From: a virus
IMG/VR virus record: IMGVR_UViG_3300028558_000022
Span: 26,979 to 90,978 of that record
Strand: one strand, 5' to 3'
DNA: 64,000 nt
Shown: positions 3,393 through 27,245 of the stretch, in pieces
Layout of the letters: each line of letters opens with the position of its first letter
How positions within the stretch are numbered: the stretch's first letter is position 1
The notes under the pieces: generated by a model
The model's database searches: none
Told to the model about the DNA's origin: nothing
What the model saw: the letters and a program-made list of their open reading frames with translations, nothing else
Translations under genes and position numbers: made by a program

Positions 3393-3598
3393 TGTCTCTC
3401 CAGCCATTTAGACAGCTCTTGTGGGTCGAACCTCACCGCCGTACTGATACGGAACGATGGGATGTTCCCCCGTCTCGCCTCCCGGCGAATCATCTGAGCT
3501 GACATTCCCAGCACTCCTGCAACCTCTTCAGCCGTTAGCGCCCGTTCATAAGCTGCGATCCTTTCTCGCACACTGGGGACGTGTGTCTGTGTCGTCAT
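3389..3598 (-). CDS. xis: Excisionase-family helix-turn-helix protein
   Basis: LTAEEVAGVLGMS...IPSFRISTAVRFD (HTH_17 pattern), convergent with int. Confidence 0.85.
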   Translation of the reverse strand: MTTQTHVPSVRERIAAYERALTAEEVAGVLGMSAQMIRREARRGNIPSFRISTAVRFDPQELSKWLERQ

Positions 3599-5039: not shown

Positions 5040-6401
5040 ATGCTTCTCGACAACTTCATTGACCGCTTCGGCGGTATGACCGAATCCTACTACTTCTACA
5101 ACGGAGAGGTTGAGCTTCGGTACGATCCTAAGGATCACGTCTACCTGTTAGTGAACGGTGACGCTCTCGAACCACAAGACGGCGTTACAACCGTTTGTCA
5201 CATCATCGACAAATCTGAGGCCCTGATTCCTTGGGCCTGTAAGCAGATGGCAACCAAGCTCCTCACGGACTTGACCATTGTGTTGCCGGACGGTCAGAAA
5301 CAGCTCCGTCAAGTCACTTACCAAGACTTTGAGAATCTCGTCATCGCAGCGAAGACGGCCCATCGCGACCGGCTTGAAGAGGCCGGAGAAGTCGGGCACA
5401 TCGCGCACGCGTGGATCGAGATGTACATCAAGGCGATCCTTGCGAACGATCAGTCTCGACAAGAGGAATTGCTTGCCAAGTTCCCAGATGACGAACGGGC
5501 ACGTAACTGTTGCTTCGCCGCTCTCGGGTGGATGAAGAATCACAACGTCCGGTGGATCGGTACCGAACGTAAAATCTACAGCCGCAAATGGAAGTACGCC
5601 GGTACACTCGACGGTCTGTGCGTTGTGGACTCGTGTAGCGATCCGAAATGCTGTCCGCGTCCGTTCAAGGATCGGCTAACGGTCTCGGACTGGAAGACGA
5701 GCAACTATCTGTACAAAGAGTACAGACTACAGACCGCAGCGTATCAATACGCCTACGAGGAAGAAACCGGCGAGAAGATTCAGGATCGCTGGATCATCCG
5801 GCTCGGTAAGGAAGACGCCGAGTTCGATCCGTGGCACGTCGAAGCTGACCAATACTATCGGGACTTCCAAGCATTCCGGCTCGCGCTCGAACTGAGGCGC
5901 ACGGTCGGCGAGATCGACGAAAACATTCAAGCTCGCGACAAGGCCCGCAGAGAAGCTGAGAAGGCGGAGAGACAAGCGGCCAAGGCTGAGGCGGAACGAC
6001 TGAAGCGCGAAGAGCGTGAGAAGCGCAAGGCCGAAGAGAAGGCAGCCCGAGAAGCGGCTCTCAAAGTCGCGTGCCCGAACTCGAAGAAATACAAGGGCCT
6101 CAAGAAACCGCGCTGCAATGGAGGAGAACCATGCGAGACGTGCCTGAAGAAGTATGCGGAAGTACAGGCAGCCAAGCCGAAGAAAGAACCGAAGAAAAAG
6201 AAGGTCAAGGGTGGCGTCCAGAACCTATTATCCGTACTGGACCCCGCTTCATCCTCACTATCGACGGAGACCTCAACACTCCCAATTTCGGAATCAAGTT
6301 CCGACACGAACACTGGAGCTTGTATCTCGGATACATCGGATTCAATCTCATCTGGGGAAAGTTCCGGGACAGCTTCATCGACACTTTCGACGCCGGACTA
6401 G
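5040..6401 (+). CDS. PD-(D/E)XK exonuclease-family protein with a coiled-coil/Cys-rich C-terminus
   Basis: GVTTV, GHIAH, YAGTLD, DWKTSN and LQTAAY motifs. Confidence 0.8.
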   Translation: MLLDNFIDRFGGMTESYYFYNGEVELRYDPKDHVYLLVNGDALEPQDGVTTVCHIIDKSEALIPWACKQMATKLLTDLTIVLPDGQKQLRQVTYQDFENLVIAAKTAHRDRLEEAGEVGHIAHAWIEMYIKAILANDQSRQEELLAKFPDDERARNCCFAALGWMKNHNVRWIGTERKIYSRKWKYAGTLDGLCVVDSCSDPKCCPRPFKDRLTVSDWKTSNYLYKEYRLQTAAYQYAYEEETGEKIQDRWIIRLGKEDAEFDPWHVEADQYYRDFQAFRLALELRRTVGEIDENIQARDKARREAEKAERQAAKAEAERLKREEREKRKAEEKAAREAALKVACPNSKKYKGLKKPRCNGGEPCETCLKKYAEVQAAKPKKEPKKKKVKGGVQNLLSVLDPASSSLSTETSTLPISESSSDTNTGACISDTSDSISSGESSGTASSTLSTPD

Positions 6402-6439
6402 AGGCGCGTCGAACATCTAAGACCTAACGAAAGGACAAC

Positions 6440-6574
6440 ATGACCACACTTTCACGTCAGCTCCGTCGTATCGACAAACAACCGGAAGATCGCCGCATCT
6501 CTGAGGATGCCATCCGTGCTGCTCATAAAATGCGTCGCAAAGCGCGGAAGGCTCGCGCTAAGGCCAAAGTTTGA
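6440..6574 (+). CDS. 44-aa basic peptide (not in the ORF track)
   Basis: AAGGA RBS; MTTLSRQLRRIDKQPEDRRISEDAIRAAHKMRRKARKARAKAKV. Confidence 0.55.
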   Translation: MTTLSRQLRRIDKQPEDRRISEDAIRAAHKMRRKARKARAKAKV

Positions 6575-6632
6575 CAATTTGTCAAGAACCGTATCGAATA
6601 CGCTTGACAAATCGAAAATAATATAGTACGAT
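6569..6632 (+). promoter_or_regulatory. Operator palindrome (6569-6586) plus promoter TTGACA-17-TACGAT (6604-6632)
   Basis: GTTTGACAATTTGTCAAG followed by a near-consensus sigma70 promoter before the SSB-like gene. Confidence 0.7.
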
Positions 6633-6686
6633 GGAGAAGTAAATCAGACGTTCGTCTGATCGGTGTCAAATTCACACAGGAGATAA

Positions 6687-7559
6687 ATGAGCAGTGAACT
6701 CGTTCAGGTAAATGCTGCCGAATCAGCATTAGTCCAAGCGCCCGTAGGCGGACTTGGCGTAGACTTCAACAATCCCCTCATGCGGGTAAAGCCCGCAACT
6801 CTGGTTATTAACCAGCCCACCACACAGGCGGAAGACGCCATCAAGGGCAAGCTCCGCATCCTTGAGACCGGCGATCAGTATGACGAACTCTACGTCACGC
6901 TTCTGGACATGCCTGTCGAAAAGCGCACATGGTACGCCGGTAAACCCGGTGAACTCAACCGCACGGCTGAGAACCTGATGTGCTTCTCCAACAACGTCAT
7001 TCGCGACGCCAATAAGCGCGAGCTGCAAGGCCCTGACCCGAAGGCCAAGGTTCCCGGTGCGCTCAAGTGCAATGGCTGTCCCAAAGCATCGTGGGAAAAG
7101 TGGCGTCAGACCAAGTTACAGGAAGACATTCCGCCTTGTGAATCGTTCTTCTACGTGACGCTGATCGACACGAACTACAAGATGCCGCTTCGTTGGTATG
7201 TTCGCTCCGGCGCCAAAGACCCATTCGAGTCTGCGCTTCAGAACGTAGCCCGTAAGCTCTTCATGATGCGTGCAAAGGGCGGCAACCCGAACATCTTCGA
7301 CATCGGCTTCAAGATCAAAACGGACAAGCGGACCAAGAACAATAAGACGACTTATGTTCCGGTGTTCTCTGGATTCGATGAGATCACACCCGAGCAAAAG
7401 GCAGACTTCGGTGACATCTTCGCTCAGTACGTTGCGTTCAAGACCGCTCCGGCGCCTGAACAGACCGTAGAGGATGCGGTTGTCGAGTCCCAGTCAAGCA
7501 TCAACGGCGAAGTCGTTGAGCCTTCCGGTCCCGCTCCTACTGGCGAGATCACGATCTAA
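6687..7559 (+). CDS. Putative ssDNA-binding/annealing protein
   Basis: Follows the exonuclease; CxxC; acidic, flexible C-terminal tail; function inferred from context. Confidence 0.5.
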   Translation: MSSELVQVNAAESALVQAPVGGLGVDFNNPLMRVKPATLVINQPTTQAEDAIKGKLRILETGDQYDELYVTLLDMPVEKRTWYAGKPGELNRTAENLMCFSNNVIRDANKRELQGPDPKAKVPGALKCNGCPKASWEKWRQTKLQEDIPPCESFFYVTLIDTNYKMPLRWYVRSGAKDPFESALQNVARKLFMMRAKGGNPNIFDIGFKIKTDKRTKNNKTTYVPVFSGFDEITPEQKADFGDIFAQYVAFKTAPAPEQTVEDAVVESQSSINGEVVEPSGPAPTGEITI

Positions 7560-7561
7560 CA

Positions 7562-7828
7562 AAAGCTCTCCGGCCCGCCTGTAAGAGGGTAATCGGTCGG
7601 TGAGGGGTGCGGGTGGCACCCAGCCGTGAGGCAAAGCCACCAAGGATCAAGTCCTCCGGGGATGAAAACTGGTACGCGAGTCCGAGCTTGGATGCGTGCC
7701 CATTGGACTGCGGGACAAGCTACCACAACACAAAAGCGAGAAGACGTGGGACGGAGAATCGTTCAGAACGCCTTAGGGCAGTGATGGGCATACATCAAGC
7801 CGTCGAATCAGGCTCGCTCCAATTGGAG
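7562..7828 (+). ncRNA. Candidate structured ncRNA or leader upstream of the RNA ligase
   Basis: At least 8 hand-found nested stems, including a GNRA tetraloop; no family recognised. Confidence 0.5.
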
Positions 7829-7834
7829 GCGGAA

Positions 7835-8965
7835 GTGTACCTAAAAGACTACATGGATGTGGACAAGCTCCGCATGTATGAAGACGAAGGAATCATAGAT
7901 CGGCGAGGTCATCGTACCCTTCCGCTCAACATCTACACATTCTCGAAGAGGGCAGTTTACGAGAATCTCTGGGACGACATCACGACAAAGTGTCGCGGCC
8001 TAATCGTTCACCACAGTACCGAAGAGATCATCGCGCGGCCATTCGAGAAGTTCTTCAACATCGACACGGACTATCGCCCGGAGACTCACCGGGCCAATCT
8101 CCCAGACGCTCAACCAATCGTCTCAGAAAAGCTCGACGGTTCGTTGGGAATCCTCTGGCGCTGGGGCGGTCAACAGGGGATCGCTACAAAGGGATCGTTC
8201 CACTCAGAACAGGCGGAGTGGGCCACAAAGACGTACAACCGGTACTACCCGTTCTCGAAGTGGCCGGAAGGCTACACGCCCGTTTTCGAGATCATCAACG
8301 AATCCATTCAGCATCACGTTGTCCACTACCACGGATACAACGATCTTGTGCTCTTGGCGCTGATTGAGAACAAAACCGGTATGGAGCTTAACGAGCATTC
8401 GCTACAGCTCTGGGCACGGATGAACGGAATATCTGTGTCCAAGACCTATAACAAGTCTCTGGATGCAGTGCTGGCAGAAGATCGGAAGAACCATGAGGGA
8501 TACGTTCTATCATGGCCGCGTCTTGGCCGCACGCCGCTCAAGATCAAGGTGAAGCACAAGAGCTTTCTCGATCTTCAGAAGGTCGTTCACGCTGCTACAC
8601 CCGGCGCGATTCTCGAAGCTCTCAAGACTGGGAATGTCGATCTACTCAACACTTGGATCGGACAGACGAACGAACCTATCGGCCAATGGGTCAAGAGCTG
8701 GCTTGTCAGGCTGAATGGTAAGTACGGCGAGATTCTCATCAAGAGCAACAACGCTTACAAGCAAGCTCTCTTCGGCGCCAACCCTTCCGAATCCCGCAAA
8801 GCATTTGCGCTTTACGTGAAGGAACACGCACCGGAATACGCATCGATATGCTTTGCGATGCTCGACGGTAAGGATCACAAGACTCTCGTATGGAAGAAGG
8901 TTGAAGAAAACTTCGATGCGGAGCTGTCCAAGCCGTTCGCTATTGAGGAGGCCAAAGCAGCATGA
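7835..8965 (+). CDS. RNA ligase, T4 Rnl1 (RnlA) family
   Basis: CRGLIV, ARPFEKFFN, EKLDGSLG (KxDG), ATKGSF, EGYVL, KIKVK; GTG start after GGAGG (the ORF-track start at 7607 is probably too long). Confidence 0.9.
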   Translation: MYLKDYMDVDKLRMYEDEGIIDRRGHRTLPLNIYTFSKRAVYENLWDDITTKCRGLIVHHSTEEIIARPFEKFFNIDTDYRPETHRANLPDAQPIVSEKLDGSLGILWRWGGQQGIATKGSFHSEQAEWATKTYNRYYPFSKWPEGYTPVFEIINESIQHHVVHYHGYNDLVLLALIENKTGMELNEHSLQLWARMNGISVSKTYNKSLDAVLAEDRKNHEGYVLSWPRLGRTPLKIKVKHKSFLDLQKVVHAATPGAILEALKTGNVDLLNTWIGQTNEPIGQWVKSWLVRLNGKYGEILIKSNNAYKQALFGANPSESRKAFALYVKEHAPEYASICFAMLDGKDHKTLVWKKVEENFDAELSKPFAIEEAKAA

Positions 8966-9468
8966 ACGCACCCAAACGGATAGCCGTCGATTTTGACGGA
9001 ACGCTTTGTGATATGGCGTTCCCTGAAATCGGGGCGCCAAAGGTCGGAGCTGTGGAGGCCATGAAGGTTCTCCGTGCTCTTGGATTCAAGATCATCATCT
9101 GGAGCTGCCGGTGTTGCCACTGGGACTACGACGTATACGGCGGAGACCCTAAGCAGCCGGTCATGGAGCGCGACAAGGTTCAAGACATGATCGCGTGGCT
9201 CGAAGCTCACGGGATCGAGTACGACGAGATCGACGACGGCAGCCGGGGTAAGCCGAGCGCGGATTACTACATCGATGACAAAGGTATCCGCTTCGAGGAT
9301 AACTGGATGAACATTGCAGCATTCATCATGAGTCGTACAACGACAGAACGAGTGCTGGCCGAACGTCGGGCAGAGCAAGAAAAGGGTGCGGGCCGGGTAA
9401 TTCCCTTCCCCGTTCCATCGGCGAAAGAGGAAGTTCCTTTCACTGACGGCAGCGGGACAACGGCCTAA
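8962..9468 (+). CDS. HAD-superfamily phosphatase
   Basis: DFDGTL, WSCR and KPSADYYIDD motifs; overlaps the ligase stop. Confidence 0.85.
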   Translation: MNAPKRIAVDFDGTLCDMAFPEIGAPKVGAVEAMKVLRALGFKIIIWSCRCCHWDYDVYGGDPKQPVMERDKVQDMIAWLEAHGIEYDEIDDGSRGKPSADYYIDDKGIRFEDNWMNIAAFIMSRTTTERVLAERRAEQEKGAGRVIPFPVPSAKEEVPFTDGSGTTA

Positions 9469-9480
9469 CAACGGAGCGCA

Positions 9481-9687
9481 ATGGCGGAGAAATAAACCAT
9501 ATTCACGATCTTTGACGCTTCCGGGGATGAAGTGTCCAAAGTTCAGGCAGACGAGATCGTACAAAACGGTCCCCTCTTTAACCTGAGGAAGAAATACTCG
9601 TCCCCATTCGACATCGAGGCAGTCATCGCACTGACGCCGGGAATGATGATCGTAAAGGAATACAAGGAACCTCAGGAACCACAATAA
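9481..9687 (+). pseudogene. Small ORF interrupted by an in-frame TAA at codon 5
   Basis: GGAG RBS; ATG GCG GAG AAA TAA ACC ATA TTC... then stays open to a TAA abutting the next ATG. Confidence 0.45.
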
Positions 9688-10392
9688 ATGTTCCCAGAAC
9701 AAAGTGTCATCGTCGGCGAAGCTGTCGCTGGCGAGTCCGCTAAGACGCGGGCGATGCTCGAAAGCATTATCAAGAATATCGACAAACAGACGCTCGACGC
9801 GGCTGAGCTTTTGGAAAAGGTTCAGTCACAAGGTCTGTATAACCCGGACTTCAACACGTACAAGGAATACACCCGCTCTATCGGCCTGAAGGACTCAAAG
9901 GCCGAGTACCTTCCGAAGATCGTCAGGGTCATGAAATCGGTCGGGTTTGAGCGCAAGGACTACGACAAGCTCAGTATTTCCCGGCTGCGTCACATCTCGT
10001 CTCTCGATCCTGAGAAGACTTGGAAGAACCCGGAAACCGGTGAAGAGGTTCCGTTCAAGGACTTCATTGTCAACTTCGTTCAGAAGGGTGAAGAGATCGA
10101 CATGGAGACCTTGCTCCAACACATCCGTACCCTCAAGGGTTTCGTGGGAGAGAACGACATCACTTGGCTGAACCTTCCCTTTGCCCGGATCACTATGGAC
10201 AACACTGTGCGCCCGGCAATCGAGAAGATGAAAGCCCTGATCGGATCGGTCGCGAAGGACGAAGACGGAATGTCCAAGGATGCCAGTGACAGCCGTTGTG
10301 TCGAGATGATTACCGTTCACTTCCTCAATGACGAAACCGTAACCGCTGAGCAGCTCAGCGCACCGCAAGGGGAACCTCAACCGGAGGAATAG
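9688..10392 (+). CDS. Hypothetical protein
   Basis: 234-aa ORF with operonic spacing. Confidence 0.7.
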   Translation: MFPEQSVIVGEAVAGESAKTRAMLESIIKNIDKQTLDAAELLEKVQSQGLYNPDFNTYKEYTRSIGLKDSKAEYLPKIVRVMKSVGFERKDYDKLSISRLRHISSLDPEKTWKNPETGEEVPFKDFIVNFVQKGEEIDMETLLQHIRTLKGFVGENDITWLNLPFARITMDNTVRPAIEKMKALIGSVAKDEDGMSKDASDSRCVEMITVHFLNDETVTAEQLSAPQGEPQPEE

Positions 10393-10735: not shown

Positions 10736-11056
10736 ATGTCCGAAAACAAACGTCCAAAGCCTATCGTACACGTTGCTCATTCTGTGTACATCGACCCAAT
10801 TCACTGTGACTCTACGGTGTCCTATAAGGTCGTCGAACAGGGCTTAGAAGATAAGCGGTATGCCTCAGGCGAAGTTAAACTGTCGGATTGCACCCGAACA
10901 ATATCGTGGTATTTCGGGGACGGAGAGCATGAAGAATCGTTGGCAAAGATCAACCGGGCCATTGACGCCTTGAAAGCATTCAGAGTCGCCCTTCGTCACG
11001 CTCAGCTCAAGGTCAAGAGACAGCAACGTCTCGCGACAAAATCGGGAGAACAATGA
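10736..11056 (+). CDS. Hypothetical protein
   Basis: Operonic ORF. Confidence 0.6.
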   Translation: MSENKRPKPIVHVAHSVYIDPIHCDSTVSYKVVEQGLEDKRYASGEVKLSDCTRTISWYFGDGEHEESLAKINRAIDALKAFRVALRHAQLKVKRQQRLATKSGEQ

Positions 11057-11433
11057 GTCATTACGACGGATGGGTCGGCGTAGACCTTGACGGTACGCTC
11101 GCCGTATACGATCACTGGCGCGGGCCGACTCATATCGGCGCCCCGATTCCCAAGATGCTCGAACGCGTCAAGGGTTGGCTCGCTGAAGGTAAAGATGTTC
11201 GTATCTTCACGGCCCGTGTCTACGCGCCAAAGGAACCGGTAACCGATCCGGCTGTACTACGGCGTCAGAACGAAGCGGTCGCCGCACTGATCGCGATTCG
11301 GGCATGGTGCGAAGAGCATATCGGTAAAGTGCTTCCCATTACCTGTACCAAGGATTACGGGATGGTTGTCCTCTACGACGACCGTTGCCGACAGGTAGAG
11401 CAGAACACCGGAAGAGTTATCGGAGAGGAATGA
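11053..11433 (+). CDS. Second HAD-superfamily phosphatase
   Basis: DLDGTLA, FTAR and LYDDR motifs. Confidence 0.8.
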   Translation: MSHYDGWVGVDLDGTLAVYDHWRGPTHIGAPIPKMLERVKGWLAEGKDVRIFTARVYAPKEPVTDPAVLRRQNEAVAALIAIRAWCEEHIGKVLPITCTKDYGMVVLYDDRCRQVEQNTGRVIGEE

Positions 11434-26741: not shown

Positions 26742-27245
26742 TCAGCTCCGGGGAGCTTCTTGATTACTGCTACCTTCGGTTGATTTCGCATTCTTGACCC
26801 TCTCAGCGACCCATGCGCTCAGCTCGTCGGCAACCTTGCCGTATACGCCCGGCGCCCGGTCGTCAATGAGATTCCCATTCGCTTGTGCGTCGAGAAGTAT
26901 TCCGAGACAGGCCCGTGCATGGGCTAGGTGATGTACACCGGAGTCCTTTGCCTTCTCTTCCTTCTCTGACCATGCAGAGATGTGGCGAAGGGCCGCGTCG
27001 ATATAAATTCGAGCGACAACGTGCTTTTCGCGCCAATTGCGGAAACCGTACTTGAGATCGCCGTCCAGCATTGCACAAGATTCGTGCGCCATTGCCACCG
27101 GGCAAACCTGCCCTAGTGGGACTTTCTTGATTCCGAGCAAGTCCTTGGGATTCGTTCCCGTTGCCTTGGACGTTGCTCCCGTAGCGGTTCGGGAGAGATT
27201 TGAACCGTGCTCTTTCTCCCAAGCCGTTCCATCTGCTAAACTCAT
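26742..27245 (-). CDS. dATP/dGTP diphosphohydrolase-domain protein (DUF5664)
   Basis: NPKD...KYGFRNWR...YIDAALRH...DSGVHHLAHA. Confidence 0.85.
   Translation of the reverse strand: MSLADGTAWEKEHGSNLSRTATGATSKATGTNPKDLLGIKKVPLGQVCPVAMAHESCAMLDGDLKYGFRNWREKHVVARIYIDAALRHISAWSEKEEKAKDSGVHHLAHARACLGILLDAQANGNLIDDRAPGVYGKVADELSAWVAERVKNAKSTEGSSNQEAPRS

Follow-up and report, generated by a model that had tools for sequence, protein, structure and literature searches.

That phage genomes conceal many structured RNAs is known, but few of these come with both a clear anatomy and a telling context. The autoregulation of gp32 in phage T4 involves a pseudoknot followed by an unstructured tract, and the tRNA cluster of the same phage holds stable RNAs that are not tRNAs (species 1 and 2, RNAs C and D). 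On a much larger scale, 10,006 candidate structured RNAs of IMG/VR phages have been catalogued, including tRNA-like and gp32-adjacent motifs, in a study that also cites the T4 gp32 autoregulatory pseudoknot (Fremin and Bhatt 2023, PMC10690425). Here we describe an element that has both anatomy and context, in a stretch of 64,000 nucleotides (nt), referred to as the window, which covers positions 26,979 to 90,978 of the 91-kb IMG/VR phage record IMGVR_UViG_3300028558_000022 (CheckV completeness 100%). The element lies at 7564-7642, at the head of a gap between a gene for a single-stranded DNA-binding (SSB)-like protein and one for an RNA ligase, and comparison with other phage loci shows this segment to be a conserved, self-contained, putative RNA element of the plus strand.

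The element resembles the T4 gene 32 operator in that a compact core, which can be drawn as an H-type pseudoknot, stands beside a gene for a gp32-like protein with an oligonucleotide/oligosaccharide-binding (OB) fold and is followed by an A/U-rich single strand, a tract that in one relative, locus L007, reaches the start codon. It differs in lying 3' of the SSB-like gene and 5' of another gene, and in having an extra 5' hairpin, a GNRA mini-hairpin in loop 3 and a copy flanked by tRNA genes. That copy, in L087/L088, recalls T4 RNAs C and D, by description only, as a small structured RNA that is co-oriented with the tRNAs on either side and occurs once per genome; unlike those RNAs, the element is inside an mRNA operon in three lineages. 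The viral tRNA-like structures (TLS), such as that of tymoviruses (RF00233), offer a further likeness, since there too a pseudoknot with two stacked stems totalling ~11 bp is joined to a long hairpin; moreover, the element occupies slots otherwise used by tRNAs, and three of its four copies end in CCACCA. However, no tRNA or TLS model matches it at E<=10, ARAGORN is negative, the fourth copy has no CCA and elsewhere the first two C's of CCACCA are inside a stem of the core (S2). The P13-P14 region of RNase P, with a GGGUGC...GCACC hairpin, a GNRA-capped hairpin and a CAAA-CCACC strand, also looks similar, a likeness that was rejected on testing: RF00010 gave no match at E<=10, and local alignment to the RNase P RNAs of L130-L132 and L087 was matched or beaten by 24-198 of 200 shuffles. 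With the candidates of PMC10690425, again compared by description only, the element shares the character of a covariation-supported motif in uncultivated phage contigs.

Anatomy and covariation of the element

The element is made up of two parts:

7564 to 7603, plus strand: 5' AGCU lead and hairpin P1, from the minimum free energy (MFE) structure and from a hairpin at the same place in three homologs
7604 to 7642, plus strand: conserved core, from covariation in a four-sequence alignment

The evidence that carries the element is found in the core. Its alignment comprises four distinct sequences, those of the window, L007, L018/L023 and L087/L088, in which 98.2% of the alignment cells form standard pairs and double-sided changes are present in six of the 14 pairs (two of five in stem S1, three of six in stem S2 and one in a mini-hairpin). 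When the pairing partners were slid by 1-3 columns as a control, pairing fell to 25-48% and the double changes disappeared. The two stems S1 and S2 overlap and each has covariation, which is what an H-type pseudoknot calls for. Between the window and L007, three compensatory pairs account for six of the eight differences within the core, and the differences have no bias towards third codon positions. The S2 of L087 includes a U-G pair that is compatible with the plus strand only, this being the strand of all the neighbouring genes and tRNAs, and every record holds exactly one copy of the element.

In the window, the core stem S1 (GGGU/ACCC) pairs 7604-7608 with 7618-7622, S2 (GGUGGC/GCCACC) pairs 7612-7617 with 7636-7641, and the mini-hairpin GCC-GUGA-GGC, with its GUGA cap, is held between the overlapping stems at 7623-7632. 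A GGGUGC/GCACCC stem, missed by the initial annotation of this region, overlaps GGUGGC/GCCACC, giving a pseudoknot or a switch. An S1 extended to 7 bp cannot form together with S2, and there is little to choose in energy between the nested alternatives (A7+C and B+C), at -16.8 to -20.5 versus -14.7 to -15.6 kcal/mol; at 5 bp S1 can coexist with S2, the H-type pseudoknot then having loops of 3, 0 and 13 nt. Because the overlapping S1 and S2 are both kept by compensatory changes, the core is either such a pseudoknot or a two-state switch of near-equal energies, the two not being told apart by the alignment.

Ahead of the core, CUCUCCGGCC (7566-7575) pairs with GGUCGGUGAG (7595-7604) to form P1, which runs straight into the core. 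The AGCU in front of it is conserved, and in the four members P1 is a hairpin of 40-50 nt, of unrelated sequence, that always ends at S1. In the window the distance from the SSB-like stop codon to the element is 5 nt, and across all members the element begins 0-5 nt past the 3' end of the upstream unit, be it a stop codon or a tRNA CCA. The tail after the core is short and single-stranded and is A/U-rich in three of the four members, with AUUUUAUG in L007 and AAGAUUUUUAA in L087 both being so; the window tail, AAGGAUCAAG, is not.

The initial annotation had treated the whole of the ~270 nt as one multi-hairpin RNA. The first two stems that it listed can be accepted, since other phages keep them with covariation, and an unrecognised structured RNA is present as it had supposed, but with a length of ~80 nt (7564-7642) rather than ~270 nt. 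No match at E<=10 came from a search of the gap, either as 2 kb or as 306 nt, against Rfam 15, a test that took in tRNA, transfer-messenger RNA (tmRNA), RNase P, Y RNA-like, riboswitch and self-cleaving ribozyme models; nor did a scan of the whole 91-kb genome at gathering thresholds give any Rfam match in the gap. The observation behind the annotation is partly confirmed, and its interpretation partly supported.

Distribution and the variable slot

Related loci share the order exonuclease, SSB-like gene, slot, ligase and phosphatase, with a slot that is hypervariable. A blastn comparison of the window with L007 gives a single 45-nt match of 80% identity (window 7598-7642), and the 82-nt spacer that holds the core in L007 is everything between its SSB-like gene and its ligase, the core ending 5 nt short of the ligase AUG, in front of which there is no Shine-Dalgarno sequence. 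In L018/L023 the same core comes directly after the SSB-like gene. The flanking proteins of L007 and L018/L023 are 47-60% identical to those of the window, or 45-60% over the lineages that share the core, and the other DNA of these loci is unalignable.

Scanning IMG/VR with a pattern of the core brought in L087/L088, where the core is found within the 137 nt between tRNA-Gly (1642-1716) and tRNA-Ala (1854-1932), in an array of at least 17 tRNAs and a class A RNase P RNA. The cores of L007 and L087 are nearly identical though the contigs are apparently unrelated. Neither a ligase nor an SSB-like gene was found in the 67-kb fragment of L087, which belongs to what is probably a jumbo phage, as the record is estimated to be ~21% complete. 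With a near-identical core placed between two tRNA genes where no ligase was found, the element is therefore not ligase-specific, which tells against the tie between RNA and ligase that had been proposed. The IMG/VR pattern scans returned the same five contigs each time, the loosest pattern adding one chance match inside a gene. A covariance model (R1) run on ~60 loci recovered only its training sequences, INPHARED phage records contained no match to the element, and the motif was not found in 401 sampled genomes of the class of Gemmobacter (Alphaproteobacteria).

The L087 array has a further feature of its own. The class A RNase P RNA at 2375-2772 (L088 2423-2820; 162.5 bits, E 6e-51) is full but without P13/P14, and it has an insertion of 88 nt, at a place where there are 4 nt in the consensus, in the hairpin after P8, presumably the P9 position. 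To our knowledge a phage-encoded RNase P RNA would be unusual, and it is possible that the contig is misbinned cellular DNA.

What else do related phages keep in this slot? L002/L003 have a 93-nt tRNA-Tyr(GTA) at 3468-3560 together with a GNAT-like open reading frame (ORF), and L022 (2122-2215) has a type-II tRNA with a long variable arm that is called as Ile(AAT) by ARAGORN and is not reported by the Rfam tRNA model at E<=1. In L008/L009 (2237-2500) the slot is a 265-nt gap with only a 56-amino-acid (aa) ORF and no Rfam match, and may be another non-coding stretch, and in L017 it contains two ORFs. L001/L010 hold a long hairpin, with or without a 69-aa ORF; this hairpin, GCCGGTGGG...CCCACCGGC, comes directly past the SSB-like stop codon (~3725-3785 in L001, ~2437-2485 in L010) and may be an analogous 3' structure of different sequence. 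On paper, the spacer after the SSB-like gene at 2392-2480 of L109 (the L017 contig) can be drawn as GGAGAG, a hairpin AAGGTG-loop-CGCCTT, GGC-CGA-GCC and CTCTCC. Its layout echoes that of the element, but it makes a three-way junction and has no R1 score, and it was rejected as a family member.

Function of the element

What, then, might such an RNA be for? We infer that the element is an autonomous module rather than a ligase leader, and the reading that we tentatively put first, at something short of an even chance, is that of a non-coding RNA, small and stable, which would be released from the transcript by cleavage and bound by a conserved partner that recognises it. Fundamental to this is the company that the element keeps, since sister phages fill the same slot with tRNA genes and the copy of the jumbo phage sits inside a tRNA/RNase P array; the element is thus found in tRNA-type slots, beside RNA-repair enzymes in some phages and within a tRNA array in another. 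A promoter-like site (TTGACA-17-TACGAT) occurs upstream of the gap at 6604-6632, and the gap itself (7560-7834) has no promoter-like or terminator-like site, so that it is probably transcribed within the operon; no intrinsic terminator (a GC-rich hairpin with a U-tract) is found on the plus strand anywhere in 6300-9800. The element would travel like a tRNA gene and be co-transcribed with its neighbours, and its release from the transcript would resemble that of a tRNA; the excised RNA might be recognised by a conserved protein or RNA partner, as is suggested by the near-invariance of the core sequence. If the element proved to be a stable RNA acting in trans, the toolkit that phages have for tRNAs and RNA repair would gain a player that is not a tRNA. 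A bolder form of the proposal, which we consider very unlikely, would place the element in a novel class of small phage RNAs that move together with tRNA genes and have a part in the conflict over tRNA cleavage and repair. It might then serve the Rnl1 ligase and phosphatase as cofactor or substrate, or else be a decoy or inhibitor directed at an anticodon nuclease of the host or at an enzyme of tRNA processing, with its two equally stable folds working as a switch.

Several points weigh against the stable-RNA proposal. The covariation statistics are thin because there are only four distinct sequences. In folding energy the element taken by itself is unremarkable (z-scores of -1.3 to -1.9), and the case for it rests on covariation together with conservation across lineages. 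In three of the four contexts the element is inside an mRNA directly past a stop codon, which fits a role in cis equally well, as does the closeness of the L007 core to its ligase AUG. The ligase or SSB-like gene of L087 could lie outside the fragment, and the discrete processed RNA is itself purely inferred.

A role in cis could take more than one form. In an operator of the gp32 type, the main rival to the stable RNA, the pseudoknot would nucleate the SSB-like protein on the A/U-rich strand and the next gene would be repressed when free SSB is high. Three of the four copies do directly follow an SSB-like gene, the modelled protein resembles the RB69 gp32 core (Z 6.0), and the tails of L007 and L087 are A/U-rich, that of L007 containing the ligase AUG that is without a Shine-Dalgarno sequence. 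An unstructured tract that reaches the regulated start is seen there, with the AUG 5 nt after S2, and not in the window or L087: the ligase ribosome-binding site (RBS) of the window is 190 nt away and its tail is not A/U-rich, whilst the L087/L088 copy between two tRNAs has nothing to translate and no SSB-like gene was found in the 67 kb. Since, moreover, the known operator sits 5' of gene 32, not 3', and the fold match is middling (Z<8), we regard such an operator as unlikely; if it were true, it would extend a classic mechanism to the control of a neighbouring gene. More doubtful still is some other cis element, such as an RNase processing or 3'-stability module that insulates transcription units or a put-like antitermination RNA that would let RNA polymerase continue across long untranslated stretches. 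The start of the element 0-5 nt past the 3' end of an upstream unit, its place in the operon interior without a promoter or terminator of its own and the untranslated RNA that follows (190 nt in the window, the tRNA array in L087), with an inferred risk of Rho-dependent termination, would all suit this role. Phage early-operon processing sites are, however, usually repeated, whereas there is one copy here per genome; the core is far more conserved than a nuclease barrier requires, and a U-tract terminator is missing.

The remaining alternatives fare worse. The initial annotation had the whole ~270-nt gap as a large multi-hairpin RNA serving the ligase and phosphatase, be it as a substrate, decoy, ribozyme or circular RNA or as a damage switch that hides the RBS. 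The stems listed for it do exist, the element is upstream of an Rnl1 ligase and a HAD phosphatase in three lineages and a palindrome overlaps the Shine-Dalgarno sequence. Yet the folding of the whole gap equals that of shuffles, conservation is limited to the first 80 nt, the counterpart of which is all that L007 has in its slot, the element is also found without a ligase in L087 and no Rfam ribozyme matches, all of which leaves the idea highly improbable. We give least credence of all to a purely DNA-level or selfish origin, in which the element would be what a small mobile element left behind, or one of its ends, or else a DNA site bound by a protein, and would have spread horizontally without any function as RNA. 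Such an origin would account for the near-identity of the L007 and L087 cores, the two contigs being apparently unrelated, and for a slot that is a hot spot for small inserted genes, but not for substitutions that are concentrated in compensatory pairs of three stems, nor for a U-G pair tolerated on the plus strand only; in addition, the element has no repeats on either side and is present just once in each record.

The gap as a whole and its 3' spacer

The element accounts for only part of the gap, which extends from the SSB-like stop at 7559 to the ligase GTG at 7835 (7560-7834), is non-coding and has a length of 275 nt, in line with the ~270 nt estimated initially. The description of it as the longest gap is roughly right, although it is not unique, as there are gaps of 285 nt at 6402-6686 and of 453 nt at 1679-2131 in the window. 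Two parts can be distinguished: the ~80-nt RNA element (7564-7642) and an unconserved spacer (7643-7834), the features of which are as follows:

7643 to 7834, plus strand: unconserved non-coding spacer or ligase leader, from folding, similarity and codon scores
7817 to 7829, plus strand: 12-bp palindrome CTCCAATTGGAG, overlapping the Shine-Dalgarno sequence GGAGG, read from the sequence

All of the stems that had been listed are present in the sequence, and RNAfold of the gap recovers the main ones, namely CUCUCCGGCC/GGUCGGUGAG, the GCC-GUGA-GGC hairpin, GGUACGC/GCGUGCC and the domain closed by AGCGAG/CUCGCU. The claim that the gap is packed with stems does not survive the z-score test, as folding is no better than that of dinucleotide-shuffled sequences. 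For the plus strand the whole-gap MFE is -100.1 kcal/mol versus -95.2 +/- 5.3 for the shuffles (z -0.91), and for the minus strand z is -1.25. Within the spacer the z-scores are -0.46 for 7643-7834 and -0.43 for 7643-7734, and the AGGA/TCCT and GGTACGC/GCGTGCC hairpins find no support in folding statistics or in homologs. The same holds for the supposed multibranch domain (7730-7822), with a z of -1.62, 14 of 200 shuffles folding as well, and no support from homologs.

Comparative data likewise separate the two parts, as the covariation seen in the core at 7604-7642 stops short of 7643-7834, for which there is no homolog. This segment has no similarity to ~85 loci by blastn, nhmmer or tblastx, nor to any of the ~100 related loci covered by all DNA and translated comparisons together, and when it was compared with the matching regions of L018, L087, L008, L109 and L001, from 43 to 287 of 300 shuffles scored equally. 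A second conserved block shared with L018, AAGUCC ... GACAAGCU, was discarded as not significant, 43 of 300 shuffles being as good. No tRNA is called by ARAGORN in the window, RF00005 has no match in the gap, and these negatives leave a degenerate tRNA or T-loop at 7802-7821 without support; in the T-loop candidate GTCGAATC at 7802-7809 the stem is only 4 bp long and the loop has 9 nt. The palindrome, which had been thought to hide the RBS, is unique in the window, where chance expects ~2 matches at <=2 mismatches, and as RNA it forms a hairpin of 4 bp at most, so that the hiding of the RBS gains no support; the reading of CTCCAATTGGAG as a repeated operator was likewise rejected, given its single occurrence, as chance expects. 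We read 7643-7834 as a spacer or the remains of an earlier insert that now bears the ligase RBS, because the slot is so variable among relatives.

Could the gap encode protein? The codon scores of its three frames, at -0.06, -0.33 and -0.33, are those of non-coding sequence, compared with 0.35 +/- 0.15 for real genes, and for a 52-aa ORF at 7626-7784 a search of 1.84 billion representative proteins gave no relative. Small-protein readings were set aside on these grounds and on an empty tblastx comparison with ~85 loci. The possibility that 7607-7834 is a translated, conserved N-terminal extension of the ligase, which would have undone the RNA interpretation, is ruled out by the starts of 16 ligase homologs and by a codon score of -0.06, where in-frame sequence averages 0.35 and has its 5th percentile at 0.10.

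Neighbouring genes

The gap is bordered by the following genes:

6687 to 7559, plus strand: SSB-like gene, 290 aa, a label with middling support from a fold model
7835 to 8965, plus strand: Rnl1-type RNA ligase (PF09511, phrog_562)
8962 to 9468, plus strand: HAD-type phosphatase with a DFDGT motif, overlapping the ligase end (phrog_1238, 2.6e-22)

The 290-aa protein has no family match in Pfam, PHROG or NCBIfam, and a PDB sequence search was likewise empty. Four cysteines (C99, C128, C131 and C151) are invariant across nine homologs. The top match of its AlphaFold2 model (AF2; mean predicted local distance difference test, pLDDT, 69) is the phiC31 gp3 recombination directionality factor (Z 7.6), the RB69 gp32 core follows with 157 residues aligned at a root-mean-square deviation of 6.6, and the further structural matches are many OB-fold binders of single-stranded DNA. 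With every fold match at Z<8, support for the SSB label, which rests on a model, is middling.

The ligase belongs to the Rnl1 family, with 64.5 bits to PF09511 (cut-off 28.3) and 1.3e-52 to phrog_562. All 16 homologs, which are 49-64% identical, begin at the residue aligned with 7835 (consensus MxLxxYxD), the closest of them, P0002-P0005, being 62-64% identical, and the GTG at 7835, the start given in the initial annotation, is preceded by the Shine-Dalgarno sequence GGAGG at 7825-7829. For this reason both the in-frame ORF from 7607 and the database call P0001 (393 aa), which begins at ATG 7784, are too long, the latter by 17 codons. The analysis thus corrects an over-long gene call as well as an over-long RNA call.

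The phosphatase also matches phrog_415, a polynucleotide kinase family, at 1e-6 and NF046079 with 59 bits, which is under the cut-off of that model. A second HAD-type phosphatase, a paralog of 126 aa with a DLDGT motif (phrog_415, 1e-7), is encoded 1.6 kb downstream of the first at 11053-11433. No polynucleotide kinase domain was seen adjoining the ligase.

Outside the window the phage encodes a permuted (two-piece) tmRNA at 6627-6865 of L104 (G000:C1:6627-6865; RF04321, 69.7 bits, E 3e-11). Four tRNAs and the permuted tmRNA are found within an ORF-free stretch of 815 nt, tRNAs being placed at 348-509, 6023-6097 and 7143-7216 of G000. Such permuted forms are typically found in Alphaproteobacteria, besides a few other groups, and this one may be a hint at the host of the phage.

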